Shown here one piece after another: positions 11,354-63,265 of a stretch of 64,000 nt of DNA. Position numbers and translations under genes: made by a program. The notes under the pieces were generated by a model. It worked only from the letters and a program-made list of their open reading frames with translations, was not told the DNA's origin and made no database searches. Origin of the DNA: a virus. Its lineage: Duplodnaviria; Caudoviricetes. The first letter of the stretch is position 1. Each line of letters begins with the position of its first letter. Location of the stretch: the IMG/VR virus record IMGVR_UViG_3300044961_000667; one strand, 5' to 3'.

Positions 11354-11375
11354 AGGGAAAGACGAGACTGTGCAC

Positions 11376-11732
11376 ATGAAGCGCGTGCTGTGCCTTGATG
11401 ACGACGACATGGTGGCCCGGCTCATCGCCGAGGTGGTCGAGTTCTGCGGACACGAGCCCGTTCGAGAGAGCGACCCGCTGAAGGCTTCCTCGGACCACCT
11501 CCACGACCGGAAGATCGCTGCGGTGCTCACCGACTACATGATGCCTCGCCTCGATGGCGTCGACGTTCTGGTGGTCTGGCAGGAGTCTCGACCCGAGGTG
11601 CGCCGAGTGCTGATCACCGCGGCCCCGAACGAGCCGGCGGTGAAAGAGGCCCTCCGCACCGGCGTCGCTCAGATGGTGATCGCTAAGCCTCCGACGATCG
11701 CCGACATCAAGATGGCCCTGGCCTGGCTCTGA
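11376..11732 (+). CDS. Single-domain response regulator (CheY-like receiver)
   Basis: RVLCLDDD…VLTDYMMPRLDG…VLITAA…IAKP: acidic pair, phospho-Asp, Thr, Lys all present. Confidence 0.9.
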   Translation: MKRVLCLDDDDMVARLIAEVVEFCGHEPVRESDPLKASSDHLHDRKIAAVLTDYMMPRLDGVDVLVVWQESRPEVRRVLITAAPNEPAVKEALRTGVAQMVIAKPPTIADIKMALAWL

Positions 11733-13204: not shown

Positions 13205-13292
13205 TGGTGGGAAGGCTCGGAGTCGAGCCGAGCTGGGACGCAATGCCACCCGCTTTACAGGCGGGCCACGAGCCCTACGTGTCTACCTTCCC
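13205..13292 (-). tRNA. tRNA-Tyr(GTA), encoded CCA
   Basis: CCCGC-CTGTAAA-GCGGG, long variable arm. Confidence 0.82.
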
Positions 13293-13295
13293 ATG

Positions 13296-13366
13296 AGCGG
13301 CATCCGGGAATCGAACCCGGTTCAGTGGCCTGGCAGACCACGGCCCAACCAATAGACCAATGCCGC
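13296..13366 (-). tRNA. tRNA-Gly(GCC)
   Basis: GTGGT-CTGCCAG-GCCAC. Confidence 0.85.
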
Positions 13367-13448
13367 ATACGGCTTTGTCGCTGACGGCCGCGCAGATCCT
13401 CGTGCGGAATGCACGAAGGACTGAACGTCTGCCGGCGACAGAAGCCAG

Positions 13449-16990: not shown

Positions 16991-18802
16991 TCAGAACAGT
17001 CCGTTCGCGGTTACGAGCCAGATTCTCCCATCGGTCCCAAGAACACCACCAGCCACGCCCACAGCGTAGATGCGCTTGGCCGGCTCGTCGAGAACGACTC
17101 CAACCGCAACGCCATCGGTGAGCCCGACGGCAGTCCAGGTCGCGGTGTTGTCGGAGACCGAACCAGTCGACGCCCACGCCGGCTCTGCGCTTCCTGACGT
17201 ACCTCCAGCCGCGGTACGGAAGTAGTACTTCGACTTCGCGAACTGATGCGTCTCGCGAGGGCGCACCAACGCGCCCGCCGAATACACGGTGTTCCGCACC
17301 CACTCCTGGATCACCTGTCCCGAGAGCGTCCGCTGCGCAGCGATTCGCCCTTCACTGTCCAGCACGACCACGCCGGCGGTTCCAGCTGCAACCACCACGC
17401 TGCCGTTCGAGGCCACCTTCGACTGGAAGAAGCTGCCACCACCGGGCAACGTCAGCGAGTCGAACAACTGCACAGGCGCCGAGGAGCTGACGTACTTGTA
17501 GACGTTCAGTCGGTCGACCAGCGACGCATAGACGAGCGCGCCAGTCGGGTTCCCGGAGTCCACGCCCACGCTGAGCGCGTTCGCCCTGCTGGTCAACTTG
17601 GTGTTCACCAGCAGCGTCGGCGTCACGCCGTTCTCCTGGTACACCCGAAGCCTCTCGACGCCAGCCTCGGTGGACGCCACGAAGATCAGAGCCGGCGAGA
17701 GGAAGTTCGCCACTGCCACGGCCCTGACTCCAGTCACGCCCGAGAAAACGGTGCCCGTCGCTCCCGACGAGAGGTTGACGACAACGAGCTGCCCGCCCGT
17801 GCCGGAGTTGTCGGCGTACTGCGCGACGTAGCCATGCGTGCTGGAGACATCCATGGCCACCGCGTAGGACGTGCCAGGGAGATCGACGTTCAGCGAGCCG
17901 GCTGCAGGCACGAGCGAGTACTCGTTCACGTCGTCGCCGTTACCGGTCGGCCCTGCCGACGCCCCCACCGTCATCACCGTCCCAGCGACATCCACCCTCG
18001 CCACGGCGCCAACACCATCTGACGTGCCCTGCTGAACACCGTCGAGGTGGTACAGCTTCGTGTTGTCGGTCGACAGCACCAAGGCCCCGCGCAGGTTGTC
18101 GATCAACGTCGTGTTGTCGAACTTCGACGGCTCCCCCACGAAGAACGTGTTCGCCACCGACGGGTGCTTCACGATGCACTGCAACGGACGCGTTCTGCCA
18201 AGCGTCGCCGCCTCGACCAACTGCCTCGACTCTCTGCCCAGCTGAGCCACGGACGCGTGACTCTGCGTGTACGACGCGACGTCCACGAAGGTCGTCTCGT
18301 TCACCTGCCCCGTCAGCAACGGGTACCCCGACTGCCAGGTGAGGCCGCCGTCATCGCTGATGCGGCCGTACACGCCCAGGTTCTTTGCCGTGCGGTAGTA
18401 CAACATCCACTCCGGCCCCTGAGTCGTCCGGTACGACATCTTGGGCTGCGAGCCCTGGCAGAGCACCGTCGGCCCCGAGATGAGCACGCCCGTGGTCGGG
18501 TGAAACCGCGCGATGAGCAAGTTGCCGTTGGCGGAGCCGTTCACGGCAACGCCGTCGTCCCAGACCACCACGACATGGTCCGTCACCGGATCGTACAGCG
18601 CGCTCACGCCTCGGAACGGCTGCCCCAACTGCGGCGTGACCTCGGTGAAGTCGAGCCCGTTGTGCGGCTTCCAGCTCAGGCGCTTGGTCGCAAACGCGAC
18701 CGGCGTGTACCAGACGACGTACGTCACCCCCGAGCGCAGGAAGCTCGAAAGCTCCTGCGGCTGCCCCTCGATGGTGATCCCTGAGATGGCCGAGACGGTC
18801 AT
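16991..18802 (-). CDS. Tail fibre/receptor-binding protein (beta-propeller-like)
   Basis: 603 aa, beta-rich G/S/T/V composition, in fibre cluster. Confidence 0.65.
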   Translation of the reverse strand: MTVSAISGITIEGQPQELSSFLRSGVTYVVWYTPVAFATKRLSWKPHNGLDFTEVTPQLGQPFRGVSALYDPVTDHVVVVWDDGVAVNGSANGNLLIARFHPTTGVLISGPTVLCQGSQPKMSYRTTQGPEWMLYYRTAKNLGVYGRISDDGGLTWQSGYPLLTGQVNETTFVDVASYTQSHASVAQLGRESRQLVEAATLGRTRPLQCIVKHPSVANTFFVGEPSKFDNTTLIDNLRGALVLSTDNTKLYHLDGVQQGTSDGVGAVARVDVAGTVMTVGASAGPTGNGDDVNEYSLVPAAGSLNVDLPGTSYAVAMDVSSTHGYVAQYADNSGTGGQLVVVNLSSGATGTVFSGVTGVRAVAVANFLSPALIFVASTEAGVERLRVYQENGVTPTLLVNTKLTSRANALSVGVDSGNPTGALVYASLVDRLNVYKYVSSSAPVQLFDSLTLPGGGSFFQSKVASNGSVVVAAGTAGVVVLDSEGRIAAQRTLSGQVIQEWVRNTVYSAGALVRPRETHQFAKSKYYFRTAAGGTSGSAEPAWASTGSVSDNTATWTAVGLTDGVAVGVVLDEPAKRIYAVGVAGGVLGTDGRIWLVTANGLF

Positions 18803-21800
18803 CAGGCCCTCAAGCCAGTGCAGTACTTGGCCAGGCGGAAGCGTCGATCGCCGAACACGCGGTACGACACGGGGCCAGCATCCGCGGTGAACGACACCGC
18901 GGCCCCCGTGTAGTGGTTCTTCACGGTGATCGCCGTCGCGCTCGTGAAGACGCTGATCTCGTAGATCCCCTTGTTCACGCCGCTGTCGACGTAGAGCAGG
19001 CGCCCCACGTCATCAGAGCAGAACCCGGAGCCCACGAAGTTGCCGTTGCTGCCCGCCATGGACCCGTCGGCTCGGGCGTACCCGCTGCCGATGTCTTCAG
19101 GGAAGAACCGGTAGTGACCACGGCTGTCCTGGCAGATGTCGCCGCTCTGCAGCGGGTACGTGCTCATCGGTCGCGTGATGCGAGCGCTCTTCGAGCCCTC
19201 GGTCGTCGTCGACGTCGTGTCGTAGCCGGGGCGACGAATCTCCCAGGGGCGGTTGGTCACGGCCGGCTGCAGGTTCTCGCTGATCGTGATGGTCGTCAGC
19301 GCATCGTTGATCGTCGCGATCGTGTACTCGCGCAGATCGCTGTCGAACTCCAGCGTGCCACCAGTGCCGCCAGCGAACGAAACAGCGGCCCCCAACTGCG
19401 ACGAAACTGTCACCTGGGTCGAGCTGTTCACCGTCTTGATGATGTAGCCGCCGTTGTCCGCGGTGGCGCCAGTCACCTTGACCACCTTGCCGAGATCGGC
19501 GTCGGTGAAGGCGGCGGAGGCCGAGTTGAGCTGATTCGTCCCCACCGTCGTGACAGCATCACCGGCCGCACCGAGCCGACGAATCGCGAACCGATCGGGA
19601 GCCGTACCTCCGGCGTTGATGCCCTCGTGCACGGTGAAGTTCATCGGGCCAGCGTCGGTCGCCAGCGCAGGAGCACCACCCGACGGCGTCACCAACGTCA
19701 CCTGCGTCGCCGAAACACGGCTGGCGATGCGGTAGAAGTTGCCCGAGTACGTCCCCGAGGTGAACCTGACGAAGCGCCCCACGTCGGCCGTCACCCACGC
19801 CGCGCTCGCCGAGTTCAGCGCGTTCGGCGACGTCGTCGTGCCGTCGGTGTACGGCACCCGCACCTGGTGGCCGAGGAACTTGTTGCCCCCGGTGGTCAAC
19901 GTCAGCGTGTCGCCGCTGGCGCCACCGAGATCGACGTTCCCGTTGAAGCCCGCCACGCCAGACATGGCGTTGTTCGCCGCCTGCAGGAAGTCGACCCTGT
20001 TCAGCCAGCTGAAGTAGAAGTCGGCGTTCGTCTGCGCCTGATCGGTCGACGTGTAGCGGCTGCTCGCCAGCTTCGCTCCGGACGGCGAGTAGAACTCGAA
20101 GCTGCTCCACCAGAAGGCGGCGTCCTGGCCAGTGTCGCCGTTGAACCTCGGAATGCCAGTCCACTTCCACCACCTGCCCGTGCGCTGCGCGACGGACAAG
20201 TCGGTGAGGTCGAAGTACATCAACGCGTCGTTGTTGTCGTACTGGTTGCGACCGTTCAGCGTGAAGAACGTGCCGTTGTTCTTCACGTCGGGAGGCAACG
20301 CCTCGGTCGAGAACGACAGACGCTTGACCAGGCTCCAGGTCGGAACGACAGCCTGGTAGTTCTGGTTCGTGACGGTCGCGTTCGGACCCGTCCGCACCTG
20401 CGCCGACGTCGCCGACAGGAGCCGGTCCACGCAGAGACGGTGCGTCGGGGCTCCCAGGCTGGGAATGGCGATCATGTCTTCGTCCTGCACGCCATCGCGG
20501 ACTTCGTACGTGATGCCCGACGCAGAGCCGCCCCACGCCTTGGCCGTCTGATCGAGGTTGCGCACCGTGACCGTCGAGCCATCGAGCGACACCGCGATGA
20601 TGCGGTAGCTGCCGTTGTCGGCACCCGCACCAGCAGTCAGCTTCAACACCTTGCCGCGGTCGCCAGTGACGAAGGTCGACGCCGCCGCCACCAACGTGTT
20701 GCCGCCAGCCGTGATGGCACCGTCGGTGTTCGGGCCCGTCGTCACCGCGCCCAGGAAATCTCCGGACGACAGAGTCAGCGTGGTGACGTTCGCTCCCGAC
20801 GCGTTGATGTTCGCCGTTCCGCTGGTGCGAACAACGGACGAGGCGACCGGAGTGCCGCCAGAGTTCGGTGCCGAGTACAGGTTCGCCACCAGTCCGTGGA
20901 ACGTGGCCGTGAGTCCCTGGAAGCTGTACCCGCTGCCGGTGTTGCTCTTGAAGCGGATCTGAACGAACCCAACCTCGGTGTCCTTGCCGAGGTCGACCAT
21001 CACCGAGGCCCCCATCACAGAGCTGTTGGCGTCACGCCCATGCCAGTCAGTGTCGGCGCTGGGGGACGAGTACATGTCGGCTCGCCCACCGGCGTTGTTC
21101 AGGTATTTGTCCTGAATCCAGTCGCAGAGCTGGCGGCCGTTGGTCGTCTCCGCACCAGGCAGCGCCCGGTGGTGACTGAGTGCCGCATCGTACTGCGGCG
21201 AAGCCCTCGCGTACGTCTCGTAGTACACCTTGGTCTCGGTCGAGCCAGGCACGGCCAGCGGGTTCTCGACGACGAACTTCTTGTCCTCGAAGTTCTCCGA
21301 GAAGCGCGTCTTGAAGCCGAACATCTCGTAGGTGGCGCCCGACAGATCCTGCGTGTTGTCCTTCCCGAGACCGTCGGCCAACATCACGGTGATGTTCTCC
21401 GGGCCGGCGTTCGAGCCAGGGGTGCCCAGGTCCCAGACGGAGTACGTCAGGGTTCCCGCCGTCGCGCTGGCCGAGAAGGGCCTGCCGTTCATCCTGGTAA
21501 GCGTGACGCTCGCCGCGCTGATGAACGCGGTGATCTTGTAGACATCAGCGTCCGCTCCCGACTCGATGCGGAGGAGCTTGCCCACGTCACCAGACACGAA
21601 GCTGGAGCCGCCGAACGTCGACGACGCCGACGTCGTCGAGCCATCGGTAGCAGTCACCCTGCTCTGCCCACCGCGACCCAGGAACTCGTTGTTGGGCGGC
21701 GTCGCGCCACCCTGACGGTTCCAGCGCACCTTCACACCGAACATCGTGTCCTGATGCGTCGAGTGAATCGGCCGCGTGAAGAGCCCGCCGCCCTTCGTGT

Positions 21801-24800
21801 ACGAGAGCGTCCCCGCCGTCGCGCTGGCCGAGAACGGCTTGCCGTTGAGCAGCCTCAGGTCGACCGACGTCGAGCTGTTGAAGACGCCGATGCGGTAGAT
21901 GCCGATGGAAGCGCCCGACTCGATCCGCAGCAGCTTGCCCACGTCAGCAGCGGCGAAGCCCGAGCCCGTGAAGGTCGCAGACCCAGACGTCGTCGCTCCA
22001 TCCGTCGGAACGTTGTTGCCCTTGAGGGGCATGGACTCCCGCGAGTGCTCCAAGGGCACCCACTTCGCACCATCCCACTGGTAGTGCACTTCGATGGGGG
22101 CAATCAGGTACCGCGCGCCACTGCCCACCGCCGACGGATGGACGTAGAAGTACCGACCCCAGGGGTCGAAGTGGAACGCGACCGCCTCGTTGCTGTTGTT
22201 GGGGTTGATCTCTCCCTTGTACGCCCAGGACTGCGTCGCCTGAGAGAAGTACCCGACGTTGCCCACCGAGTTCGTGTTGGGCCTGAGGTACACCATCATC
22301 TTCCCGTCCGGGTGCTCGTAGAACGCTCGAACGTACCGCGTGTTGCCCGAGCTGCCGGCGTACGCGCCATCTGGCCGCGGGGCGACCTTGTCGGACACGT
22401 AGAACGTGCCCGCGTAGTTCGACTGCGCTGAACCGGAAGCGTTGGTGAAGGTCACCGACGACGAACTATTGAAAGCCGTGATCGGGAATGCCCCGTTGTT
22501 CGCCGCCGTCGACGCGCCGGTGATGACGATCCACCGCCCCACGTCGGCAGCCGTGAAAGGCGTACCCGTGGCGTTGATCGTCATGTTCGGCGTCGAGAAC
22601 GACAGACCCGTCGTGCCGTTGCCGGTGCCCGTCGTCAACGGCACTCCAGCGAAGTACGTCGTGTTGTCAGGGCCGAAGTGACGCTTGACGGCCGCCGCGG
22701 CGAAGTTGCTCCTCGGGATCTGGAAGATGCCGTTGTCGGAGCCGACCCAGACGTCATCGAACTTGCTGTTGACGTGGATCGCAGAGAACACGCCCGGCGT
22801 GCCAGGGTTGGTCGCCGGATTCGCACCGCCCTGCACAACACCGCCAGCCGGCGACAGCAGCGACGTGTTCGAGATCGAGATGAACGCGTGCGTATTGGCC
22901 ACGACGTCGTACTTGTTGATCTGCTGCTGCGTGTCGTTCGACAGCCAGTAGACGTCTCCCGTGCCCTGATCGACGCTGCACATCTGCGGCTGCCCGTACA
23001 GCAGCCCCGTGCCACCAGGAACTCGCGTGTTGATGTTCGCGCCATTCGTCATCGTCACGGTGCGCGTCAAGAACGTCCCCGGAGCGAGGGACTCCATGTA
23101 GTTGATCTTCCCGGCACCCGTCGTGTTGTTGTTGAAGAACAGGTACAGGCGATCACCGATCTCGAATGTGCCGCCACTCTGGGTGGTGAACGTCACCGCC
23201 CCACCAACGAGCGTCTGGACCTCGACCGAGGTCGCGCTATTGATCGCGCTGATCTTGTACGTGCCCGAATCCGCGCCAAGCCCCGTGAGCTTGATGACGC
23301 GCCCGATGTCGGCGGCCGTGAAGCCTCCCGACGCCGACGTCACATTGTCGGCACCATCGGTCGAAGCGTCGGCAGCAGTCCCGAGCCGAGTCCTCGTCTT
23401 GTCGATGACGCAACCCGCGAGCACCGAGGAAGGAACGCCGTCGCCGAGGCCATACTGCAACGTCGTCAAGTCCGGCTTGATGACGATGATGCCGGCGTTG
23501 CCTCCGCTCGCGTGGAACATCGCGACGTAGACCCAGTTCTTCCCAGAGCCGAAGTTACTGCCGATCTGCATCGACGTGACGACGTCGCCAGCACCCATCA
23601 CTGGGGTGGGCGTCAGCATCTGCTGAGGGGCATTGCCGAGGTAGTTCGCCACCTCGCGAATGCCCTCGCTCGTCTTGTACCGCCAGTGGAACAGCGCCGA
23701 CGTGTTCGAGATGGTGGTGCCGCTGAACCACATCCGCTGGTTGTCCCAGTCCAGAACGAGTCCGTTGCAACCGCCAGAGAAGTTCGACAACCACGGGATG
23801 GTTTCGCTCCCGTTCGCCCCGAACAAGCAGTCGGAGAGAATGAACCCGTCGTCCTGGATGGCCGAACCGAGAGCGCCATACCCGTGCGTGAACGGACGCA
23901 GCGTCATCGAGTAACTGCCCTGCTGCTCGGTCCCCACAGCAGCTTCAGTGGAGCCAGTCTTCTCCACGACGAAGCGCATGATGAAGGACTCCCGCAACGC
24001 CTTGTCACCGTAGTACGGCGCGGCCGGGTTCCGCGGATTGTACCGGCCGGCGGTGTCAACAGTACCGACACTGAGCGGGATGATGCCGACCTCGTTGAAC
24101 CAGGCTCGACGACCAGGAGCCGCAGTCATCAGCAGGCCACTCGCCGTGTCCTGTGCGTAGAATGGAGTGCCGTCCAGGTTTCGCAGCCACAGCCTGTTGG
24201 TCTGCAAGTCGTTGTTCTGAACGAAATAGTACCCGGCGTCAGCACCCGTTTCGATGCGGACAATCGAGAAGACATGCTGCGACGTCGACCCAAAATCCCA
24301 GAACTGACCATTCGTGTACGTGACGTAGCTCAACCCAGCAGTCGTGGCGACCGTGTTCCCCTGTTGATGCGCAGGGTGAAAATACACAATACCGATCTGC
24401 GTATAGTCGAGCGGCACGTCCACCTGCGAAACGAGCTGATCTCCACCACCAAATCTCGACGCGATAACTCCCGGATAGGCGCTCCCGGCACCAAGCCCAC
24501 CAACGACTCGCGGGATGTTGGCTGCAGGCACGTTCCCGACCGTCCCGGTAACCCTGAACTGCGCGTACTGCACCGTCGACATGGTCGTCGTGCTTCCGGT
24601 CGGAGAGTCAGGGTAGTTCGTCACACCTCGAACGAACGTGTCGTGACCGATGCTCTGATCATCGTCCGCCAACAGGTAGACCATCTTGAAGGGCAGAGCC
24701 AACACATGCGGGGCGGTGCCCGCGTAGTTGTTGTTCCACTGATAGATGGTGCGGTACCTCGACGCGTACAGGTACGACAAGTTCGAGCCCTGGTGCTCGA

Positions 24801-24855
24801 CGCGACCCTCATTGTCGTGGAGGGTCAGCAGACCGACGATGTCCTTGAGTCCCAT
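18802..24855 (-). CDS. Giant 2017-aa tail fibre/adhesin with eight internal repeats
   Basis: Recurrent F/W-x-x-x-D-(V/I/L/R)-G-(R/K)-x-(I/L/V)…G…G-Y-(R/K)-I motif. Confidence 0.7.
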   Translation of the reverse strand: MGLKDIVGLLTLHDNEGRVEHQGSNLSYLYASRYRTIYQWNNNYAGTAPHVLALPFKMVYLLADDDQSIGHDTFVRGVTNYPDSPTGSTTTMSTVQYAQFRVTGTVGNVPAANIPRVVGGLGAGSAYPGVIASRFGGGDQLVSQVDVPLDYTQIGIVYFHPAHQQGNTVATTAGLSYVTYTNGQFWDFGSTSQHVFSIVRIETGADAGYYFVQNNDLQTNRLWLRNLDGTPFYAQDTASGLLMTAAPGRRAWFNEVGIIPLSVGTVDTAGRYNPRNPAAPYYGDKALRESFIMRFVVEKTGSTEAAVGTEQQGSYSMTLRPFTHGYGALGSAIQDDGFILSDCLFGANGSETIPWLSNFSGGCNGLVLDWDNQRMWFSGTTISNTSALFHWRYKTSEGIREVANYLGNAPQQMLTPTPVMGAGDVVTSMQIGSNFGSGKNWVYVAMFHASGGNAGIIVIKPDLTTLQYGLGDGVPSSVLAGCVIDKTRTRLGTAADASTDGADNVTSASGGFTAADIGRVIKLTGLGADSGTYKISAINSATSVEVQTLVGGAVTFTTQSGGTFEIGDRLYLFFNNNTTGAGKINYMESLAPGTFLTRTVTMTNGANINTRVPGGTGLLYGQPQMCSVDQGTGDVYWLSNDTQQQINKYDVVANTHAFISISNTSLLSPAGGVVQGGANPATNPGTPGVFSAIHVNSKFDDVWVGSDNGIFQIPRSNFAAAAVKRHFGPDNTTYFAGVPLTTGTGNGTTGLSFSTPNMTINATGTPFTAADVGRWIVITGASTAANNGAFPITAFNSSSSVTFTNASGSAQSNYAGTFYVSDKVAPRPDGAYAGSSGNTRYVRAFYEHPDGKMMVYLRPNTNSVGNVGYFSQATQSWAYKGEINPNNSNEAVAFHFDPWGRYFYVHPSAVGSGARYLIAPIEVHYQWDGAKWVPLEHSRESMPLKGNNVPTDGATTSGSATFTGSGFAAADVGKLLRIESGASIGIYRIGVFNSSTSVDLRLLNGKPFSASATAGTLSYTKGGGLFTRPIHSTHQDTMFGVKVRWNRQGGATPPNNEFLGRGGQSRVTATDGSTTSASSTFGGSSFVSGDVGKLLRIESGADADVYKITAFISAASVTLTRMNGRPFSASATAGTLTYSVWDLGTPGSNAGPENITVMLADGLGKDNTQDLSGATYEMFGFKTRFSENFEDKKFVVENPLAVPGSTETKVYYETYARASPQYDAALSHHRALPGAETTNGRQLCDWIQDKYLNNAGGRADMYSSPSADTDWHGRDANSSVMGASVMVDLGKDTEVGFVQIRFKSNTGSGYSFQGLTATFHGLVANLYSAPNSGGTPVASSVVRTSGTANINASGANVTTLTLSSGDFLGAVTTGPNTDGAITAGGNTLVAAASTFVTGDRGKVLKLTAGAGADNGSYRIIAVSLDGSTVTVRNLDQTAKAWGGSASGITYEVRDGVQDEDMIAIPSLGAPTHRLCVDRLLSATSAQVRTGPNATVTNQNYQAVVPTWSLVKRLSFSTEALPPDVKNNGTFFTLNGRNQYDNNDALMYFDLTDLSVAQRTGRWWKWTGIPRFNGDTGQDAAFWWSSFEFYSPSGAKLASSRYTSTDQAQTNADFYFSWLNRVDFLQAANNAMSGVAGFNGNVDLGGASGDTLTLTTGGNKFLGHQVRVPYTDGTTTSPNALNSASAAWVTADVGRFVRFTSGTYSGNFYRIASRVSATQVTLVTPSGGAPALATDAGPMNFTVHEGINAGGTAPDRFAIRRLGAAGDAVTTVGTNQLNSASAAFTDADLGKVVKVTGATADNGGYIIKTVNSSTQVTVSSQLGAAVSFAGGTGGTLEFDSDLREYTIATINDALTTITISENLQPAVTNRPWEIRRPGYDTTSTTTEGSKSARITRPMSTYPLQSGDICQDSRGHYRFFPEDIGSGYARADGSMAGSNGNFVGSGFCSDDVGRLLYVDSGVNKGIYEISVFTSATAITVKNHYTGAAVSFTADAGPVSYRVFGDRRFRLAKYCTGLRA

Positions 24856-48107: not shown

Positions 48108-50225
48108 TTACGTCCCCAGTGCCGAAGCAGCTTTCGCCTGCTTCGCCTTGAAGGCCCGATCGAACTCCTTCATGTCGACCTGGATCACCACGGGCCGGTC
48201 GGCCAACTTCGAGATGGTGCTCACCGCCGCCGAGTCCAGCGTCGTGCTGGTCGGCTGGACCGACATCTGCGGCTTGGGCTGAGGAGGCAACAGGCCGGGC
48301 GTCGAATTCTGCTGCGAGAACGACTGCGTCGGCGCCTGCTGAGGAGGAAGCGGCTTCACGACGCCCGGCGCACCACCCTGAGGCACCCCCTGAGGCTTCG
48401 TCAGCGGGTTGTGCGTCATGTCGTAGTACCAGTCCGACATCTTCCCGCCGATGTCGACCGCCTGCTTGGCGCCCTTCTGCATCGCGCCGATCATCCCGCC
48501 GCTGGCCACGTTGACGATCTTGCCGAGAATCGTGTCCTGATCGACGAGCGCCTTCAGCGCCGCCCAGATCAGCCCTCCGATGCCCTTCGCGAGCCCAACG
48601 AAGAGCGGCGTCCAGTCCACCTTCCCCAGGAGGTCTCCAACCTTCTCCACGCCAGCGGCGAGGACGGCATCGAACTTCTGCCCGTTCTCCTTGCTCGTGA
48701 GGAACTTCCAGAAGTCCTGCGCCAACCCCACCAGTCCGTCCCACAGGTACTGCCAGGGGAACGACTCCTTGATGATGCCCCAGATCTCCTTGAACGCCGC
48801 GCCCACCGAGTCGACCAGGTTCCCGAACGCGGCCTTCACTGCCTCCGCCTTGGGCTTCATGTCCCCAGGGAAGACGACGTTGATCAGCTCGGCAAGGCGC
48901 TCAACCGGCCCGCCCTTCTTCGCCAACGGCGTGATGACGTTGTTCAGGAACTTCATGCCGACGTTCACCAGCGGCCGGAACGCGACCTCCAGCTTCAGCA
49001 GCATCGCTCCCAGGCGCATCTTCATCGCCTGCATCCCGCGCTCGATGCGCTCCGCGTACGCGGCTTTCTTCGCCTCGGCCTCCTGCTGCTTCATCAGGCC
49101 AGCGGACTTCGCGAGCGCCTTCGGGAGATCCTTCCCGAAGACACCCTGCACCTTGCCCCAGCCCTTGTAGATGAGCTGGGTCGTCTTCGGCCCGAACGAC
49201 TTCTCGATGAAGGTGCGCAGTCGCGCCTGTTCACCCTGCGAGAGCTTCGACGCTTTCCCGACGACGTTGGACATCTGGGAGATGAACTGCACCGGGTCCT
49301 GGGCACCCTCCTTGACCGACTTCATGCCCTTGCCGACGTCGCGGAAGAGAACCGACAGATCTTCCGTGAGCCCGCCCAGGCCATCGCCAAGCCCTGCGAA
49401 CGCCTGCGACATCTCCTTCGAGTTGGAGGCCATCAGCTCGAAGAACTCCGTCGCCTGCCCAGCAGCTTCCTCCGCCGGCAGCCCGAGCCCCTTCGTGAAG
49501 GCCGCGCCCAGCTGCAGCACCGACAGCGAGGTCTTCTTCATCTGGTCGGGGGTCAGCTTCAGGAACGACAACTTGTCCTGCACGTTCAGCATGATCTTCG
49601 GCAGGTTCTCGATGCCGATGGGGATGTTGCCGAACGCCTTCTGCGTGGCCAGGGCCTGATCCATCAGCCCCTCCATCGCCTTGTCAGTGAGCCCGATGCT
49701 CGTCTTCGCCGTCTCGAAACTGCCGACCTGCTGAGGCGACATGCCGAACGTCTTCATCACGGAGACGGTCTTGCCGAGCTTCTTCATCGCCTCGTCGAAG
49801 CCGATGCCGGTGGACAGCAGCTCCTTCAGAACCTCGCGCGACTCGTCGAACTCCGCACCGGTGCCAGTGCTGGCCTTGATGATCTCCGAGTTGGCACGCC
49901 TCATCTGGTCGGCAGTCAGCCCAGCCTGGGCGCCCAGGAGGGCGCTCTTCTTGTTGAAGTCGAGCAGCAACCCTCGACCTTCGCGAGCCATGTCGACCAA
50001 CCCGCTGACGATGCTGGCGATGCCGCCGGCGATCATGGTGAGCCCGCCCGTGGTGAGGCCGGCAACCATTCCTCCCAGCGCCAGGCCCGCCGATGCGGCT
50101 CCCTTGGCCAGCCCACCGACCTGAGTCGTGACGGCGCCGACGGCCTTGCCCAGCTTCTTCACGACGGCGGTCATGGAGTCTTTGGCGGTGTAGACAACGC
50201 CAAAGCCGACGTCTTTCTGGCTCAT
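48108..50225 (-). CDS. Tape measure protein (705 aa)
   Basis: Helical A/G/K-rich protein directly after the chaperone genes. Confidence 0.85.
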   Translation of the reverse strand: MSQKDVGFGVVYTAKDSMTAVVKKLGKAVGAVTTQVGGLAKGAASAGLALGGMVAGLTTGGLTMIAGGIASIVSGLVDMAREGRGLLLDFNKKSALLGAQAGLTADQMRRANSEIIKASTGTGAEFDESREVLKELLSTGIGFDEAMKKLGKTVSVMKTFGMSPQQVGSFETAKTSIGLTDKAMEGLMDQALATQKAFGNIPIGIENLPKIMLNVQDKLSFLKLTPDQMKKTSLSVLQLGAAFTKGLGLPAEEAAGQATEFFELMASNSKEMSQAFAGLGDGLGGLTEDLSVLFRDVGKGMKSVKEGAQDPVQFISQMSNVVGKASKLSQGEQARLRTFIEKSFGPKTTQLIYKGWGKVQGVFGKDLPKALAKSAGLMKQQEAEAKKAAYAERIERGMQAMKMRLGAMLLKLEVAFRPLVNVGMKFLNNVITPLAKKGGPVERLAELINVVFPGDMKPKAEAVKAAFGNLVDSVGAAFKEIWGIIKESFPWQYLWDGLVGLAQDFWKFLTSKENGQKFDAVLAAGVEKVGDLLGKVDWTPLFVGLAKGIGGLIWAALKALVDQDTILGKIVNVASGGMIGAMQKGAKQAVDIGGKMSDWYYDMTHNPLTKPQGVPQGGAPGVVKPLPPQQAPTQSFSQQNSTPGLLPPQPKPQMSVQPTSTTLDSAAVSTISKLADRPVVIQVDMKEFDRAFKAKQAKAASALGT

Positions 50226-50245: not shown

Positions 50246-50410
50246 CTATCGCCTCGACCGCTCTTCTTCGAGGTCCATCTTACGCTGCAAGAGGCGCTTC
50301 CGTCGCATGACGGGGATGGCCATGGTCTCCGCCGGCGTCCATCCCCACATTTCGGCGAAGTAGAAGACCTCTGCTTCTAGGGCTTCGACGTCGCCGACGG
50401 GAAGAAAAAA
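50246..50410 (-). CDS. -1 frame extension of tail assembly chaperone (GT product)
   Basis: T TTT TTC slippery heptamer at 50404-50410; -1 frame continues FLPVGDVEALEAEVFYFAEMWGWTPAETMAIPVMRRKRLL. Confidence 0.7.
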   Translation of the reverse strand, partial: FFLPVGDVEALEAEVFYFAEMWGWTPAETMAIPVMRRKRLLQRKMDLEEERSRR

Positions 50411-51129
50411 CTCGGCTCCGACGGGCTCACCTCGATCTCGAACTCGTGCTGGCACGAGACGCACGTCGCCTCGACATCGGTCTCGAACTCCGCCTCAGTC
50501 CCACGCCACTGATCGCGGATGAAGTTGCGCTCCGAGGACGGCAGCGCACGCAGCTCGTCGTGGCCCGGCTTCTTGCCGTCGATCTTGGACACCCGCAGCT
50601 CCATCGCGAGCGTGGCGACCTCGGTCTTCATCTTGGCCGACTTCTCGGCGGCCTCCTTCTGCTCGACGCCCGTCATCACCTTCATCTCGACGAGGCGGCC
50701 ACGAGGAGTCTTCACCTCGTACACCCGACGTCCAGGATCCTTGGCCGGGTGACGCTCCAAGGTGTCGAGGTCGATCTGCTTCCACTGCTTCTGCTTGCAG
50801 TTCGGGCACTCCACCTGGAACCGGTAGAGCGAGCCACACGACACCTTGCGAATCTCCACGAGCAGCTGCGAACGATCGGCGACCGGCAGAGACAGCACCA
50901 TCGTCGAGATGACGCCCTTGTCCTTCACGCCGTCGAAGTCGATCACGCAGTTGCTCATGATCTCCTGCAACTTGTCGAACAGCGTCTTTCCCGACGAGGT
51001 GATGATGTCCTCCTCGACGCCGGTCATCTCAGAAATGGTCACCTTCCTCAGGAGCGTGCCGTCGTCCTTCCGGTAGCCCGACAGCAGCTCGAAAGAGGCG
51101 ACGCTCGACTTGGCTTCTTCGGAGATCAT
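50377..51129 (-). CDS. Tail assembly chaperone with CxxC motifs
   Basis: EMTGVEED…DR..LLVEIR…CPNC…CVSC; position between tube and TMP. Confidence 0.75.
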   Translation of the reverse strand: MISEEAKSSVASFELLSGYRKDDGTLLRKVTISEMTGVEEDIITSSGKTLFDKLQEIMSNCVIDFDGVKDKGVISTMVLSLPVADRSQLLVEIRKVSCGSLYRFQVECPNCKQKQWKQIDLDTLERHPAKDPGRRVYEVKTPRGRLVEMKVMTGVEQKEAAEKSAKMKTEVATLAMELRVSKIDGKKPGHDELRALPSSERNFIRDQWRGTEAEFETDVEATCVSCQHEFEIEVSPSEPSFFFPSATSKP

Positions 51130-51209: not shown

Positions 51210-53000
51210 CTACTTGGAGGCGTCGAGAACGCTCTTGACGAAGTGAGTCGCCTCCGCGGTCTCCTGCCGGCGCTTCTTCATCCAGTCGTCGAACGACATC
51301 TCGGGGCCAAGCTGGTCGTCCTTCCCGGCCCACTTGGTCCACAGGTAGTCGAAGTCGGGATCGACGTCTTCCTTGAACGCGTACGGCGAAGGACCGCCCA
51401 GCTCGAACTCCGCCTTCTCGGGGTTCGACATCACCGTGACGAAGTCGGTCACCCAGGAGAGTCCTGGCTCGATGGTGGGCGGCTGCACCTCAGCCTCGTT
51501 GACGTACCCCACACAGATGTGCGGCACGAAGTCGAACGGGCTGCTGTACTCGATTCCCGCCGCAGCGATCGCCCGAACGATGTCGGTACGAAGGGCCGAC
51601 AGGCCCACCGCCGACGGAACCACGTACACCGGCACGCGACCATCGCTGTTCTTGGTGGCGGCGAACTTCCCAGAGCCCGTCAGCGTGAACTCCAACGGGG
51701 GATGCGTGGCCACCACCTCGGCCACCGCCTTCTTGATGCGCTCGAACGCGTCAGGCGGGTGCTTCGACTTGTTGCCGTAGTACGCCAACGTGATGTGTGG
51801 GCCAACACCGTTGTCTCGCGGTTCCCCACGCGCGTACTGCGACATGATCTTCGCGCCCGTCTCAGGCGGAAGCATGATCGCCACCCACAGGCTGCCCTCG
51901 TGGTCCTCCGTCGTGAACCTGGCGTACGGCTGAAGCGGGTGATCCTTCACCGGCTTCACGTCGGGCATCGGTCGACGCAGCATCGGCGGATACTGCTCTT
52001 CATCGCCACCACGCGGACTCCGAGCGTCACCCGGAAGCGTCGTGATGAGCGTCGAGTCGGGCATCGGGTCTTCGACCTTCACTCCGCCCATCGCCTGCTC
52101 GAACTTCCGCGCGAAGAACTTCTCGGCGTCATCGGCCGACACGAGGAACGACGGCAAGCCCACCGCCTCGGTCACGTCCGCTGGGTGCACCGGCACCGGC
52201 GCCGCAGGCGCATTCGGGCCAACCCATCCACAGTCAGGGCACGTCCAGGCATCTCTCCCGTCGTCGTACTCGATCTGAGACTCGCAGGCCGCGCTCTCCT
52301 GATGCCTGCGCATCGCAGCCGACTCCGCATCGACGCTCTCAGCCATCGGCTTCGGGTACAGGCGAAGGCGCTGGAGTGAGTGCGGACCGTCGTCGCCCAT
52401 GTCGACGTCAACCAGCTTCGACCCAGAGCTGGCGGCCAACTCGGCGTGCATTCGATCGGCGGGCGGCGTGCGACTGTGCTTGCTGACGATCTTCCCCGTC
52501 TTGCGGTCTACGGACCCCTCTCCCGACGCCAGGATCATCCCGTGCTTCAACAGCCAGTTCACGGTCTTCGCCACCAGCTTGCGGCCCATCCCCTTCTCAC
52601 CAGAAACGTTGGCGAGGTCGCTGATGAAGGCCAAACGCTTGCCTTCGACTTCGATGTCTCCGGTCGACAACCCCATCTCGGCCATCACCTGGCCGTCGGG
52701 GCTGATCAGCATGGCGAACAGATCGTAGCTGCTGTGGTTCTTGTCGACATCCAACTCCCAGCCATCACCAACCGACTCGCGCTGAGGCAGCTTCCCTTTG
52801 GCCAGCTGGCGGTTGAACTTCTTGAACTGCTTCTCCTTGGACTTCTTGTCGTCCCAGTTGCCCCACGGCTTGATGCTTCCGCCGCCAGCACCAGGGGCAA
52901 CGCCACCAAGCGGAACGGCGACGGTACCGACGTTCGCGGCAGTGGTCTGCTCGTTGCGAACGACCGCCTCCAGCTCTCGAATCAGTTCGTCGATCTTCAT
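51210..53000 (-). CDS. Multidomain protein with 2H phosphoesterase, GNAT-like and Zn-ribbon segments
   Basis: PHITLAY…FVPHICVGY (two H-x-T/C motifs); GEKGMGRKLV; CPDC. Confidence 0.75.
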   Translation of the reverse strand: MKIDELIRELEAVVRNEQTTAANVGTVAVPLGGVAPGAGGGSIKPWGNWDDKKSKEKQFKKFNRQLAKGKLPQRESVGDGWELDVDKNHSSYDLFAMLISPDGQVMAEMGLSTGDIEVEGKRLAFISDLANVSGEKGMGRKLVAKTVNWLLKHGMILASGEGSVDRKTGKIVSKHSRTPPADRMHAELAASSGSKLVDVDMGDDGPHSLQRLRLYPKPMAESVDAESAAMRRHQESAACESQIEYDDGRDAWTCPDCGWVGPNAPAAPVPVHPADVTEAVGLPSFLVSADDAEKFFARKFEQAMGGVKVEDPMPDSTLITTLPGDARSPRGGDEEQYPPMLRRPMPDVKPVKDHPLQPYARFTTEDHEGSLWVAIMLPPETGAKIMSQYARGEPRDNGVGPHITLAYYGNKSKHPPDAFERIKKAVAEVVATHPPLEFTLTGSGKFAATKNSDGRVPVYVVPSAVGLSALRTDIVRAIAAAGIEYSSPFDFVPHICVGYVNEAEVQPPTIEPGLSWVTDFVTVMSNPEKAEFELGGPSPYAFKEDVDPDFDYLWTKWAGKDDQLGPEMSFDDWMKKRRQETAEATHFVKSVLDASK

Positions 53001-53001
53001 C

Positions 53002-53574
53002 TCACGCTCCGATGGCGTACTCTTCCCAGTACTCGGGCTTGATCTCCAGCTCCTGCAACGAAATCGCGCTGGACGACGCATCGAAGTCGCTTCCCACCTT
53101 GTACCTCGTCGGCACGCACCCGTGGAGCACCCAGGCTTTCCCTGGGATCCGAGTGTACTGCGTCCCGAGGGCCACGCTGCCCACCGGGTTCATCGACGTG
53201 AAGTGCACCAGCAGCAAGTTCTTCCGAACTGAGCTGCCGGCGCCGGCGGCCAACAGAGCCGGCAACGCCCCGGAGTTCTGCTTGGTGAGCGCCGCCTTGT
53301 CTCCGCTCAGCGCAGCGACGATCCATCGCCAGAAGTCGCTGTCGAAGAACTGAACGCCGCGGGTCAGCGTGATCGAGTTCACTGCCGCCCTGGTGACGAC
53401 AGTCCTCGGGAAGTGCCACGTCCCCTCTCGGATGTCGTGGGTCTCGACGGTGATCTCAGGCGCAGTGATGGCGCTGAACCCGAACACGGGCAGCAGCACT
53501 GGCGTCGGGAACGAGATGTCCGTGAGCCAGAACTGGTACGCCTGCATGTAGTCCAGCACCCGCGAGTTCGCCAT
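53002..53574 (-). CDS. Tail tube protein (gp19 family), second copy
   Basis: GFSAITAPEITVE…REG…ITLTRGV…FWRW…P..YK..DFDA.SS…E..I. Confidence 0.85.
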   Translation of the reverse strand: MANSRVLDYMQAYQFWLTDISFPTPVLLPVFGFSAITAPEITVETHDIREGTWHFPRTVVTRAAVNSITLTRGVQFFDSDFWRWIVAALSGDKAALTKQNSGALPALLAAGAGSSVRKNLLLVHFTSMNPVGSVALGTQYTRIPGKAWVLHGCVPTRYKVGSDFDASSSAISLQELEIKPEYWEEYAIGA

Positions 53575-53660: not shown

Positions 53661-54185
53661 CTAGGCGTTCGCTTCGACCTTCTCGCCACCCACGACCTCG
53701 ATGTCGAAGGACTCGTAGTCGAGGGTCATCTCGGTGATGGAGATGTCCGACGACGTCGCGTCGAGGTCGCTGCTCACCTTGTTCGACGTGGGGAACGCGT
53801 TCCACAGCGTGATCTTGCGAGCCGGCTGCTGCGCGTTGTCGCGGTGGAAGTGGTTGATCGTCACGTCGGCCCGGTACTCGCCGCCCTTGATGACCAGGTA
53901 GATCCACTTCGCCAGCGCCGTCTCAGCGCGGGCCACGCCACGCGACAGGGTGATCGGCTCGAACGTCGGCACGCCCGGCTGCTTCTTCGTGTACGTCCAG
54001 ATGCCCTCGCGGTACGTCGCCGACTCGACGGTGACGTTGGGCATGCCGCACGCGTTGAAGCCGCCCTGCGGGAAGCGATCGCCTCGGGGGGCCGAAGTGC
54101 CCAGGAAGGTCCCGCCGCCGGCCTTCACGTCGGTCACCTGGAAGCGGAAGTTGTGGAGGAAGTCGCTGTTCTCTGCGCGTGCCAT
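53661..54185 (-). CDS. Tail tube protein (gp19 family)
   Basis: NFRFQV…GF..C…YREG…KQPG..TF..ITLSRGV…LWNAFP…DLDATSSD…TL.YE. Confidence 0.9.
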   Translation of the reverse strand: MARAENSDFLHNFRFQVTDVKAGGGTFLGTSAPRGDRFPQGGFNACGMPNVTVESATYREGIWTYTKKQPGVPTFEPITLSRGVARAETALAKWIYLVIKGGEYRADVTINHFHRDNAQQPARKITLWNAFPTSNKVSSDLDATSSDISITEMTLDYESFDIEVVGGEKVEANA

Positions 54186-57205: not shown

Positions 57206-57922
57206 TCAGTTGGTTTTCAAGCCAACGTGCACAATCACTTCCGTAGCCGCAGTATCGGTGCGCGGGTCCGACAAATCCAGCTCTCCTTCGACTCTGATGG
57301 AGACGGTGAAGCCTACCACTCGCTCCCCGACCCTCGCCAGTTCGTCGATGACGGTGAAGCCCTCCTGGAAGGCTTCGTAGGTCCGCTTCTCTTTCAGAGA
57401 GTCGACGACGTACACGCTCGACGCTGGGTGCTGGTACACGCGCATCACGTGCTCCAGCAGCAGCAGCGCGTCGCCACGCGTCTTCGCGAGCACGTGCAGA
57501 TCGTACGGGATGTCGTACGGGTACGCCCAGTCCTTCGACTCGTACTTCGTGAAGCCCTGGACCCCCGTCTTCGTGTCCGTCACCGGCTGAGCGCTCGCCG
57601 ACGGCAACCGGTACTCCTTCGTCTTGGGGTGGTAGCGCAGCGGCGCTGGAACATGGTCTCCGCGGCGCACCACGATCTGCGGCACCTCGGGCGTCTCGTA
57701 GACATCCTCGGGAGCACTGAAGGTGATCAGAACGGCGTTGCCAGGACCCGTTCCCGGAAAGTTCATCGACTTCGTGAAGCGCGACAGCGGCAGAAAGTAG
57801 TTCGGCTGTTGCTTCACGCCATCGCGCAACGTTCTCGACAACTGAACTCCACCGAGCGTCTCAATGACGCCCTGGTCGAAGTTCCTCATGAAGACCGAGC
57901 CGGTCCTGAAGGAATCGCTCAT
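57206..57922 (-). CDS. Tail terminator/sheath stabiliser (gp15-like)
   Basis: P.PYDIPY.L…; position before sheath. Confidence 0.65.
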   Translation of the reverse strand: MSDSFRTGSVFMRNFDQGVIETLGGVQLSRTLRDGVKQQPNYFLPLSRFTKSMNFPGTGPGNAVLITFSAPEDVYETPEVPQIVVRRGDHVPAPLRYHPKTKEYRLPSASAQPVTDTKTGVQGFTKYESKDWAYPYDIPYDLHVLAKTRGDALLLLEHVMRVYQHPASSVYVVDSLKEKRTYEAFQEGFTVIDELARVGERVVGFTVSIRVEGELDLSDPRTDTAATEVIVHVGLKTN

Positions 57923-58344
57923 CGCCCATGGGACCTGGCAGCAGCCTCTCGGTCGGCCAGCTCCTGCGCCGCCCTGAGCACGGCCGGCTTGAAGTCCGTC
58001 GTCTTGGCCGCCGCGGTCCACGCGCCAAGATCTTCGTCGCTGGCCCTCGCGCTCGGGAACGGAGGCATGCGCCCTTCTGCGGCGTACCGCTTGGCCATCG
58101 AGACGATCAGCCCGACAGCGAGGTCGGGCTTGAACGCGTAGCGGACTGCCAGGCTGTTCACGCAGTCGCCGAGGAAGTCGTCGAAGCCTCGCTCCGACTC
58201 CGACGGGTTGAACGCAGTCATGGGCGCCGACGCCGTCCGCTCACCAGCGCCGCCAAATGGCGTCCCAGTGGTCACGACCGCACCGCCCTCACCGAGCACC
58301 TTCTTCATCGACTCAACGAGTGGCCTGAGCCTCGACAGCGACAT
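57919..58344 (-). CDS. Hypothetical protein with LVESMK leader
   Basis: MSLSRLRPLVESMKKVLGEG; GGAGG RBS. Confidence 0.7.
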   Translation of the reverse strand: MSLSRLRPLVESMKKVLGEGGAVVTTGTPFGGAGERTASAPMTAFNPSESERGFDDFLGDCVNSLAVRYAFKPDLAVGLIVSMAKRYAAEGRMPPFPSARASDEDLGAWTAAAKTTDFKPAVLRAAQELADREAAARSHGR

Positions 58345-61816: not shown

Positions 61817-62148
61817 CTGGCCGCCTTCGCGAGCTTCTCGTACTCGCGCTGCTTCTTCGGGTTGTCCTTCTCCATCGCGTGCTTCATGTTTGCCCGCGAG
61901 CCCTTGCCGGTCGACTTCACGGCCTCTCCTCGCCCGCCGGACTTCAGGTAGCCCGAACGGCGAAGATGCGCATGGCAGATGTTCCGCGAGCCACGCGCCT
62001 TGGCCCGATCGCTTCCCGACAGCTTCTTGGAGACCGCCACCATGCAGTGGCGAACCTGGGCGCCGGTCTTGTCGGGCTTCTCCGCTCCGGAGTCGCCAGT
62101 CGTGTCCTCGAACAGTTGGTCGAGGCTGATGTACGCGCTCTCGCTCAT
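61813..62148 (-). CDS. Basic hypothetical protein
   Basis: 111 aa, coupled on both sides. Confidence 0.65.
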   Translation of the reverse strand: MSESAYISLDQLFEDTTGDSGAEKPDKTGAQVRHCMVAVSKKLSGSDRAKARGSRNICHAHLRRSGYLKSGGRGEAVKSTGKGSRANMKHAMEKDNPKKQREYEKLAKAAR

Positions 62149-62540
62149 CCGGAATGCCTCTCAAGATACTCGGCTGCAAGGCGAAGCACATCAGGTCGCT
62201 CCTTGAACTTCGCCAAGCCGTTGTTGCAGAAGTCGCAGAGCAACGAACGGAGCTTCCCAGTCTTGTGATCGTGGTCTACCGAGAAGAACTTCTTGTTCGC
62301 CCCTGGGTCGCCTGACCCACAAATCGCGCAGACGCCTCCCTGTGCCGCGAGCATCGTCTCGTACTGCTGGTGAGTGATGCCGTACCGACGCCGCAGGTTC
62401 CAGTTGCGGAAGTACATCGGATCTTCAGCCTGCCGCTTGGCAGACTTCGCACGAACCTTGGCAGCGTTTCGCGCGTAGTACGCCCTCTCGGCCACCCTCG
62501 CCCGCTCTCGCTTTTCGCTTTGAAGGATCGCAGTTCGCAT
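62145..62540 (-). CDS. Endonuclease VII-family homing endonuclease
   Basis: RRYGIT…QGGVCAICG…VDHDHKTGKLRSLLCDFCNNGL…AAEYL. Confidence 0.9.
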   Translation of the reverse strand: MRTAILQSEKRERARVAERAYYARNAAKVRAKSAKRQAEDPMYFRNWNLRRRYGITHQQYETMLAAQGGVCAICGSGDPGANKKFFSVDHDHKTGKLRSLLCDFCNNGLAKFKERPDVLRLAAEYLERHSG

Positions 62541-62542
62541 CT

Positions 62543-63265
62543 CTACCCCGTGATGATCCCCATGGGGAAGCCGAGTCCGACGATCTCCTCCTGCAACGCC
62601 TCCAGCTCTTCCTTCGCCTCCTGCTTCAGCGTCTCGCCGTCGAGCTTCTTGTCTCCGCCGGCCAGCGGATAGCTGTCGAACTTCGAGCGCAGGTACCCGA
62701 GCCGCATCTTGGCCCTGGCGAAGGTGTACCTGCGAATCAGCTCCTCGTCCCGCGGGTCCAGGGAGGAGATGTCGACCGTCGCCGACTTGTACGAGATGAG
62801 CGCCGAGTACGAGCCCTTCTGAACCGGGAAGATCCTCAGCTTGTGGCTGTCGCGATCGAACTCGTAGTCGACGTCCGACGACATCACGCGCTTCACCATG
62901 TCGACGTAGCTGATGGTCTGCGCGAACGTCGAGTACACGCCACCTGCCTGCGGAACTCGGAACAGGTCGTAAGGGATCGACTCGTCGAGGAAGTTGAACG
63001 AGGTGAACAGCACTCGCAGGTCGACCGCAGAAACGCCCGGCGCGATGCTCAGGACATCGTTCACATCGTTCGGCAGCGTGTACTCGCTCTGGCCGGCGAT
63101 GACCGCGAGGGTCATCTCCTTGTTGGTGCCCTTCCAGTTCGCGAACCATCGCTTCGCGTCAGCGATCGAATCGTCAAGCTGATCCTCGGTCAGCTCCACG
63201 CGCTGCGTGGGGAAACCGAGCGTCCTCTTGACCCATCCCTTCAGTTCGGTCTCGTTGACGGCCAT
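62543..63265 (-). CDS. Neck protein (T4 gp13-like)
   Basis: KRTLG.P…VELTEDQLDD.I.DA…RRYT.A..K..LG..RSKF…GG…LDG..L..EA..E…L. Confidence 0.85.
   Translation of the reverse strand: MAVNETELKGWVKRTLGFPTQRVELTEDQLDDSIADAKRWFANWKGTNKEMTLAVIAGQSEYTLPNDVNDVLSIAPGVSAVDLRVLFTSFNFLDESIPYDLFRVPQAGGVYSTFAQTISYVDMVKRVMSSDVDYEFDRDSHKLRIFPVQKGSYSALISYKSATVDISSLDPRDEELIRRYTFARAKMRLGYLRSKFDSYPLAGGDKKLDGETLKQEAKEELEALQEEIVGLGFPMGIITG

Follow-up and report, generated by a model that had tools for sequence, protein, structure and literature searches.

Why should a gene for a multi-domain enzyme lie between the tail-tube and tail-chaperone genes of a phage, and where would its product act? We addressed this question in a 64,000-nt stretch of viral DNA (Duplodnaviria; Caudoviricetes; IMG/VR record IMGVR_UViG_3300044961_000667; hereafter the window), in which the gene occupies positions 51210..53000 on the (-) strand and encodes a protein of 596 residues plus stop that contains a 2H phosphoesterase domain. 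A first-pass annotation, made from the DNA letters, had read it as a capsid-delivered polyprotein carrying several enzymes, inserted between tube and chaperone genes. The open reading frame (ORF) and its place were borne out, with a tube protein (PF06841) encoded upstream and a PF12322 protein downstream. The gene is translationally coupled to the second gp19-like tube gene, its ATG at 53000 being 1 nt past the TGA of that gene and preceded by GGAG; an alternative, longer in-frame start at 53081 would overlap the tube gene, and a homologue (P0004) begins at the point equivalent to the ATG at 53000. An identical 596-residue protein exists as database record P0002. The best explanation that we can offer is a protein of four parts, namely a non-enzymatic N-terminal module (hereafter the N-module), a probable GNAT acyltransferase, a degenerate zinc ribbon, and a LigT-type 2H domain with a helical tail. 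The reading that we favor, tentatively and with slightly less than even confidence, is that of a polyvalent-type effector that joins 2H and putative GNAT domains to a new docking module and is probably delivered by the virion.

The firmest part of the protein is the 2H phosphoesterase domain (residues 364-535; 51396..51911, (-) strand). Two Pfam models matched it above their curated thresholds, PF13563 (E 5e-14; 53 bits, cutoff 27) and PF02834 (25.8 bits, cutoff 23.3), and it also matched PHROG 14859. An AlphaFold2 (AF2) model built on a three-sequence alignment reached a predicted local distance difference test (pLDDT) score of ~80 over residues 370-535, and its best Foldseek matches in the PDB (5h7e at E 5e-10, 5ldm [E. 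coli LigT], and 1iuh; E 5e-10 to 1e-7, TM-score by target 0.64-0.70) were the bacterial 2′,3′-cyclic phosphodiesterases drCPDase, LigT, and TT0787, a predicted structure of the LigT-type alpha+beta fold. Both catalytic histidines are kept. In an alignment of 151 homologous 2H domains, the first motif (H402-I-T404; 51789..51797, (-) strand) is canonical, with His in 150 of the 151 (one gap) and Thr in all, while the second (H494-I-C496; 51513..51521, (-) strand) retains an invariant His but has Cys in place of Thr or Ser, a replacement found in six of the 151 (the target, P0003, P0005, P0006, P0007, and P0085). We consider the domain itself certain; it is LigT-like and, with both histidines intact, active-looking. 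Its score against the ThpR/LigT equivalog TIGR02258 (33.7 bits) is under the 65.7-bit cutoff. The suggested link to T4 Acb1 survives at the level of the 2H superfamily, but not below it: the Pfam Acb1 model (PF23474) gave no match at E <= 0.01, no Acb1-titled entry appeared among the top 50 PDB fold matches, and just two of the 77 nearest 2H homologues touched the Acb1 model, weakly. Acb1 family membership was rejected because the profile match was missing and the best folds were LigT and 2′,3′-cyclic phosphodiesterases.

Residues 77-219 (52344..52772, (-) strand) plausibly adopt a GNAT fold, as suggested by structure matches and a motif alignment. The string GEKGMGRKLV, which had prompted the GNAT-like label, is present, and its G-E-K-G-M-G loop fits the x-x-x-G-x-G of acetyl-CoA-binding motif A, without the R/Q; BLASTP aligned GEKGMGRKLV...LLKHG on motif A of a Pfam-confirmed GNAT in another 2H protein (P0025), and the ESM-Atlas model of the whole 596-residue protein aligned to GNAT families over residues 75-225 (TM-score 0.54-0.64). 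Set against this, the region had no Pfam match even at E 10, and its single-sequence AF2 model reached a pLDDT of 49 with no meaningful PDB matches, while AF2 on the three-sequence alignment folded the 2H domain only. Word-index searches with the GNAT piece found no relatives, and the region is an insertion missing from both full-architecture homologues, P0003 and P0004. Counted as effector domains, the 2H domain is certain, and the GNAT domain is proposed from the ESM-Atlas and motif-A alignments.

The remaining parts are smaller. The predicted CPDC ribbon is there (residues 233-266; 52203..52304, (-) strand) but degenerate, with three cysteines (C239, C254, and C257) against four or more in P0003 and P0004, and it weakly resembles the RPA Zn ribbon (E 0.19). 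It is followed by a low-complexity, Pro-rich linker (residues 267-363; 51912..52202, (-) strand) that is predicted to be disordered (pLDDT < 50), and the 2H domain is followed by a conserved helical C-terminal tail (residues 536-596; 51213..51395, (-) strand) with the pattern D.LWT.W.GK..Q.GP..DW. G+C content at third codon positions is 0.79-0.89 across all parts of the gene and does not indicate recent horizontal acquisition, which we had considered as an origin.

Where might such a protein act? The genomic company of its closest 2H relatives points to the phage head. Scanning the 77 nearest 2H homologues gave 29 matches to portal, prohead-protease, or MuF families. The family counts were 13 for Peptidase_S78_2 (XkdF prohead protease), 12 for portal families, three for Phage_Mu_F, two for ART-PolyVal, and one for DUF2213. 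In the subclade that shares the HxC second motif, two members outside the tail-gene family have an informative architecture, and both are head-protein fusions: P0085 joins a portal to a 2H domain, and P0007 (locus L008) joins a 2H domain to DUF2213 and is encoded just upstream of cement and major capsid genes. P0025 joins GNAT, 2H, and PcfJ, so that the pairing of GNAT with 2H recurs. Among isolates, 2H homologues occur right after portal, MuF, or protease genes (e.g., Laroye gp18 and ValentiniPuff gp7), and among viral proteins the best fold matches include large ones from actinophages that carry the annotation "capsid morphogenesis" or "structural". Finally, two syntenic relatives of the window (L012 and L013) encode a Peptidase_S77 (T4 gp21-type) fused to a coiled-coil scaffold, together with a Gp23-type capsid protein. 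Because of the 29 head-family matches in 77 homologues and the S77 protease and gp23-type capsid protein in relatives, virion delivery of the 2H protein is a reasonable guess, and delivery in the capsid is plausible on this comparative evidence.

The second observation that bears on location is the N-module (residues 1-76; 52773..53000, (-) strand), which is the most conserved part of the protein. It comprises an N-terminal helix (MKIDELIRELE), a Gly/Pro-rich core (TTAANVGTVAVPLGG..GGGSIKPW), a basic helix, and a terminal invariant P-x-R-E-S, and it had no Pfam match. Its identity to P0003 and P0004 is 57% and 67%, respectively, whereas the 2H domain reaches 51% and 33%. Searching very large protein collections yielded P0003 (563 residues; 48% identity over the best local alignment, which covers 41% of the query) and P0004 (377 residues; 30% identity) as the only full-architecture homologues, and both are encoded in loci with the order sheath, 185-residue protein, tube, tube, 2H gene, PF12322 gene, and tape measure gene; the order from tube 2 through the 2H gene and chaperone to tape measure is thus kept in L001 and L003 at 30-48% identity. 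A family-alignment search of IMG/VR and GTDB genomes found no further members, word-index searches with the N-module found no new ones, and neither did a tblastn search of 50,697 phage genomes with this module. More distant relatives were recovered by a metagenome search with a sheath alignment, whereas a metagenome scan with the gp15-like protein found nothing. Two of these relatives carry the N-module as a gene of its own: in L011 an 85-residue protein (11355-11612; ...TTSANVGAYPVPLG...RHES...) and in L023 a 68-residue protein (17131-17337; hmmsearch E 4e-4). The family, as defined by sequence, is known from three lineages plus these two stand-alone N-modules. Because stand-alone copies occur, we conclude that the N-module forms an independent unit and that enzymes became fused to it in the lineage of the window. 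Both stand-alone genes share LDV.ALL.RR...ANVG.Y.VPLG, and both are directly upstream of an HNH-like gene and the tail chaperone gene.

Might the N-module be a tag for packaging? We looked for the motif T..[AV]N[VA]G[STA][YFV] in 4,098 ORF segments, taken in six frames from the window and every retrieved locus. Apart from the N-modules, it was confined to gp23-type capsid proteins (those of L012, L013, and L023), where it directly follows L-x-E-[ED]. When these were aligned to T4 gp23 with MAFFT, the motif fell on "AQAFGSFLTE", which lies immediately before the known cleavage site of T4 gp23, after Glu65. From this resemblance, the N-module may mimic the maturation junction of a gp23-type capsid protein. 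A fuller version, that it is an undescribed prohead-targeting device that copies the gp23 maturation-site motif (E-x-T-x-x-A-N-V-G-S/T-aromatic), loads either a bare small protein (as in L011 and L023) or a multi-enzyme cargo, and is trimmed by the S77 protease, seems to us doubtful; if true, the tail operon would encode a longer analogue of the T4 capsid targeting sequence (CTS), one that mimics the capsid protein. P0003 (L001, 372-2063) has an additional segment in front of this module (SQSQRGLFYAKAKRGEIP...RWEKETPKGKLP, its residues 1-45), which we take to resemble the DUF3008-type basic peptides of phage proteins.

Put together, delivery would run as follows. The 2H effector would be produced late, alongside tail proteins, and the N-module would dock it into the assembling particle, more probably a T4-type prohead than the tail lumen. 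It would then enter the next host together with the DNA, where the 2H domain would hydrolyze 2′,3′-cyclic or 2′-5′ phosphodiester substrates; candidates are nucleotides that serve as immune signals, or the RNA ends that anticodon or abortive-infection nucleases of the host leave behind. A host protein or a small molecule would be the substrate of the GNAT domain. The window genes that were scanned showed no RNA ligase.

Several points weigh against this reading. A literature search, aimed at mass-spectrometry evidence, yielded no usable report of 2H proteins in phage virions. By Pfam or PHROGs, the 596-residue protein showed no peptidase, MuF, or portal domain, and the evidence for an S77 protease comes from relatives, since the prohead protease gene of this genome itself lies outside the window. 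At its second catalytic motif, the target has HxC in place of HxT/S. No other cargo was seen to carry the N-module in IMG/VR and GTDB genomes, by word index, or by tblastn in the phage genomes. Its likeness to capsid proteins is short (~10 residues) and was defined after both families had been viewed; BLASTP between N-modules and capsid proteins reached E 0.014 for one pair, and the N-module hidden Markov model (HMM) gave no significant match to capsid proteins. The 45 residues that precede the "leader" in P0003 are unlike a T4 CTS. Finally, the slot between tube 2 and chaperone takes non-structural genes in relatives.

This last point speaks for a quite possible, if less probable, alternative, namely that the gene occupies a hot spot for insertions in the tail operon and encodes a "moron", a late accessory enzyme that stays in the cytoplasm of the producing cell and is no part of the virion. 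It would there degrade cyclic-nucleotide alarm signals that late structural proteins set off, or repair RNA after cleavage by abortive-infection nucleases, and the N-module would serve oligomerization or partner binding. In L011, the slot holds the 85-residue N-module ORF and a 218-residue ORF that is a degenerate match to HNH and ribbon-helix-helix (RHH) proteins, and in L023, an 870-residue ORF, the 68-residue N-module, and the same HNH-like gene. The 870-residue ORF (L023, 14495-17107) resembles by eye a class II (B12-type) ribonucleotide reductase (RNR), for which it is a candidate. Because the slot accepts RNR-like and HNH-like genes in relatives, being encoded in the tail operon does not by itself mark a protein as part of the virion. 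The accessory-enzyme explanation also fits the wealth of GIY-YIG, HNH, EndoVII, and PDDEXK_5 genes in the window and the missing head-protein domain in the target, and to our knowledge T4 Acb1 itself is not known as packaged. It leaves unexplained why a non-enzymatic module of 76 residues should be the most conserved part and persist as its own gene, and why fusions to portal, protease, or MuF domains are frequent among the nearest 2H relatives. As for the HNH-like/RHH protein (192-218 residues; L011 11769-12425 and L023 17380-17958, E 1e-57 between the two), it combines an HNH-like Cys scaffold, lacking the His residues, with two RHH-like repeats and is encoded directly before the tail chaperone gene; a role as regulator is conceivable, as is an origin by domestication of a homing endonuclease.

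The tail operon itself raises another possibility, which we judge unlikely: that the protein is cargo of the tail lumen, with the N-module binding tube, tape measure, or chaperone and the enzyme being expelled ahead of the DNA, like leader-loaded cargo of extracellular contractile injection systems (eCIS). In its favor are the conserved place between tube 2 and the chaperone and tape measure genes, the coupling of the start to the tube gene, and the stand-alone N-module genes in the same tail block of L011 and L023. Nevertheless, the lumen would have to take up a multi-domain protein of 66 kDa in competition with the tape measure, the relatives in the 2H clade are head proteins and not tail proteins, and we know of no phage precedent for enzyme cargo in the tube lumen except tape-measure domains.

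The genes of this block share one strand in the order gp15-like, sheath, a 187-residue protein, the two gp19-type tubes, the 2H gene, the PF12322 gene with a -1-frame ORF, tape measure, a LysM-like gene, and then gpD-like, gpV-like, and gp25-like genes. Tail tube paralogue 1 lies at 53661..54185 ((-) strand; PF06841, E 1e-19) and tail tube paralogue 2, directly upstream of the 2H gene, at 53002..53574 ((-) strand; PF06841, E 1e-14). Downstream, the PF12322 (T4_baseplate) protein (50377..51129, (-) strand), assigned by its profile match and syntenic in L001, L003, L011, and L023, is probably the tape-measure chaperone. A -1-frame extension ORF (50246..50464, (-) strand; motif FY..EMW...RR.R...K) runs over its 3′ end and is kept in L011 at 13211-13435, and this pair of genes looks like a G/GT-type programmed frameshift of the tape-measure chaperone. 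The tape measure protein (48108..50225, (-) strand) was assigned from weak TMP_2 and PhageMin_Tail matches and from synteny.

How, then, does the polyprotein proposal fare? It held that a prohead protease cuts the capsid-delivered protein at QRE|S, MAE|S, VTE|A, FKE|D, and TAE|A into separate enzymes behind a leader, IDELIRELE. All of the strings that it quoted exist in the protein (IDELIRELE at residues 3-11, QRES 73-76, GEKGMGRKLV 134-143, MAES 219-222, CPDC 254-257, VTEA 276-279, HIT 402-404, HIC 494-496, FKED 542-545, and TAEA 581-584), but the five-site cleavage map was not supported, one site being invariant and the P3 residues inconsistent, and we regard the proposal as very improbable. 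The best site is QRE|S, where P72, R74, E75, and S76 of the P-x-R-E-S motif are invariant in all three homologues and the small protein of L011 has R-H-E-S; at MAE|S, a Glu is roughly kept to within one residue behind a conserved P-x-P. These two sites, and the S77 proteases of relatives, speak for cleavage, as the S77 protease family cleaves after Glu. The other three do not, VTE|A and TAE|A lying in non-conserved stretches and FKE|D in an acidic stretch whose alignment is uncertain, and cuts at FKE|D and TAE|A would fall inside the conserved C-terminal tail. Sites of the form x-x-E at domain borders are cheap because the protein has 42 Glu, 12 of them before S, A, or D, and such sites are expected by chance. 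Prohead proteases follow the rules L/I-x-E in T4 and S/A/G-x-E in phiKZ, and the P3 residues of the proposed sites (Q, M, V, F, and T) fit neither. The leader is present as a string, yet the LxxLxE pattern occurs at five of the 55 N-termini in the window versus 5% of background windows, and a leader shared by morphogenesis proteins was rejected for lack of enrichment. Should any trimming occur, the candidate sites that are conserved (I-R-E9, N-E17, and R-E75) all fall in the N-module.

The wider window was informative about the source. It had no match to sequenced phages at the DNA level, and its sheath is ~30% identical to isolate sheaths, in the C-terminal part only; together with the EndoVII and homing-type genes, this led us to assign the DNA to an uncultured large myophage. 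An eCIS or prophage reading was set aside in view of EndoVII and the many homing-endonuclease-type genes, and is also countered by syntenic relatives, in which genes for a gp23-type capsid protein and an S77 protease lie upstream of this tail module. Homing-endonuclease-type genes are abundant, including GIY-YIG with NUMOD3, HNH, EndoVII, and two PDDEXK_5 (253-984, 62145-63149, and others within 1-36000), and a response-regulator receiver domain, an SNase, and a DUF5661 are also encoded. An ORF of 2,017 residues (18802-24855, (-) strand), downstream of the baseplate genes and with no Pfam match, is presumably a giant fibre or host-recognition protein. Three window proteins (2172-2576, 2594-3103, and 57919-58344, all on the (-) strand) have in common an N-terminal helix, L(L/V)ES(V/M)K(K/S), in the versions TNVLLESVKK, TNALLESVKS, and LRPLVESMKK, the first two coming from neighboring paralogues.

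The family matters beyond this locus since a prediction of 2017 has injected 2H phosphoesterases forestall nucleotide-based immunity or defences that target RNA, and the family offers a compact test case, being free-standing, with no portal or protease fusion, and equipped with a separable, highly conserved N-terminal module. If the N-module is a packaging tag for T4-type heads, it would help to explain how phages load enzymes and could serve to bring foreign proteins into capsids. Without packaging, this would be an accessory 2H/GNAT gene of an ordinary kind, at a variable position in the tail operon.

Compared with known systems, the target is closest to the polyvalent proteins of Iyer, Burroughs, Anand, de Souza, and Aravind (2017; PMC5512222, section 20), whose 2H domains were predicted to be injected with the DNA and proposed to be RNases or degraders of 2′-5′ or cyclic nucleotide signals, and were never linked to RNA ligases. 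The target belongs to the same 2H clade by sequence, would combine several effector domains in one polypeptide (a putative GNAT and the 2H domain, cf. P0025), and is encoded among late structural genes. Unlike the polyvalent proteins, it is not fused to a portal, MuF, or protease domain, has no metallopeptidase domain, and is encoded in the tail module between tube and chaperone genes, and its family-specific N-module and C-terminal tail are not described in that study. The T4 internal proteins IPI-III and Alt, in which a 10-residue N-terminal CTS (MKTYQEFIAE) is removed by gp21 (PMC8442874, PMC3012670), are similar in that the relatives of the target have a T4-type head (S77 protease and gp23 capsid protein), in that the N-terminus of the target, MKIDELIRE, ends in I-x-E (I-R-E at 7-9), which P0004 keeps and which is internal in P0003, and in that the internal proteins are basic and a basic helix follows the N-terminal helix of the target. 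They differ in that the conserved module spans 76 residues instead of 10 and P0003 has 45 residues in front of it, and we claim no homology to the T4 internal proteins or Alt. LigT and ThpR (PDB 5h7e, 5ldm, and 1iuh) provide the best fold matches and have the two-His active-site architecture in common with the target, whereas the target scores under the TIGR02258 cutoff, has an HxC second motif, and holds its domain within a 596-residue multi-domain phage protein. T4 Acb1 (PF23474), which counters the cyclic-oligonucleotide-based antiphage signaling system (CBASS), is likewise a phage-encoded member of the 2H superfamily, and by analogy degradation of immune nucleotides is plausible for the target, which differs in having no PF23474 match at the threshold used. 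What is particular to the target among these systems is its free-standing architecture, its position in the tail operon, and its N-module.

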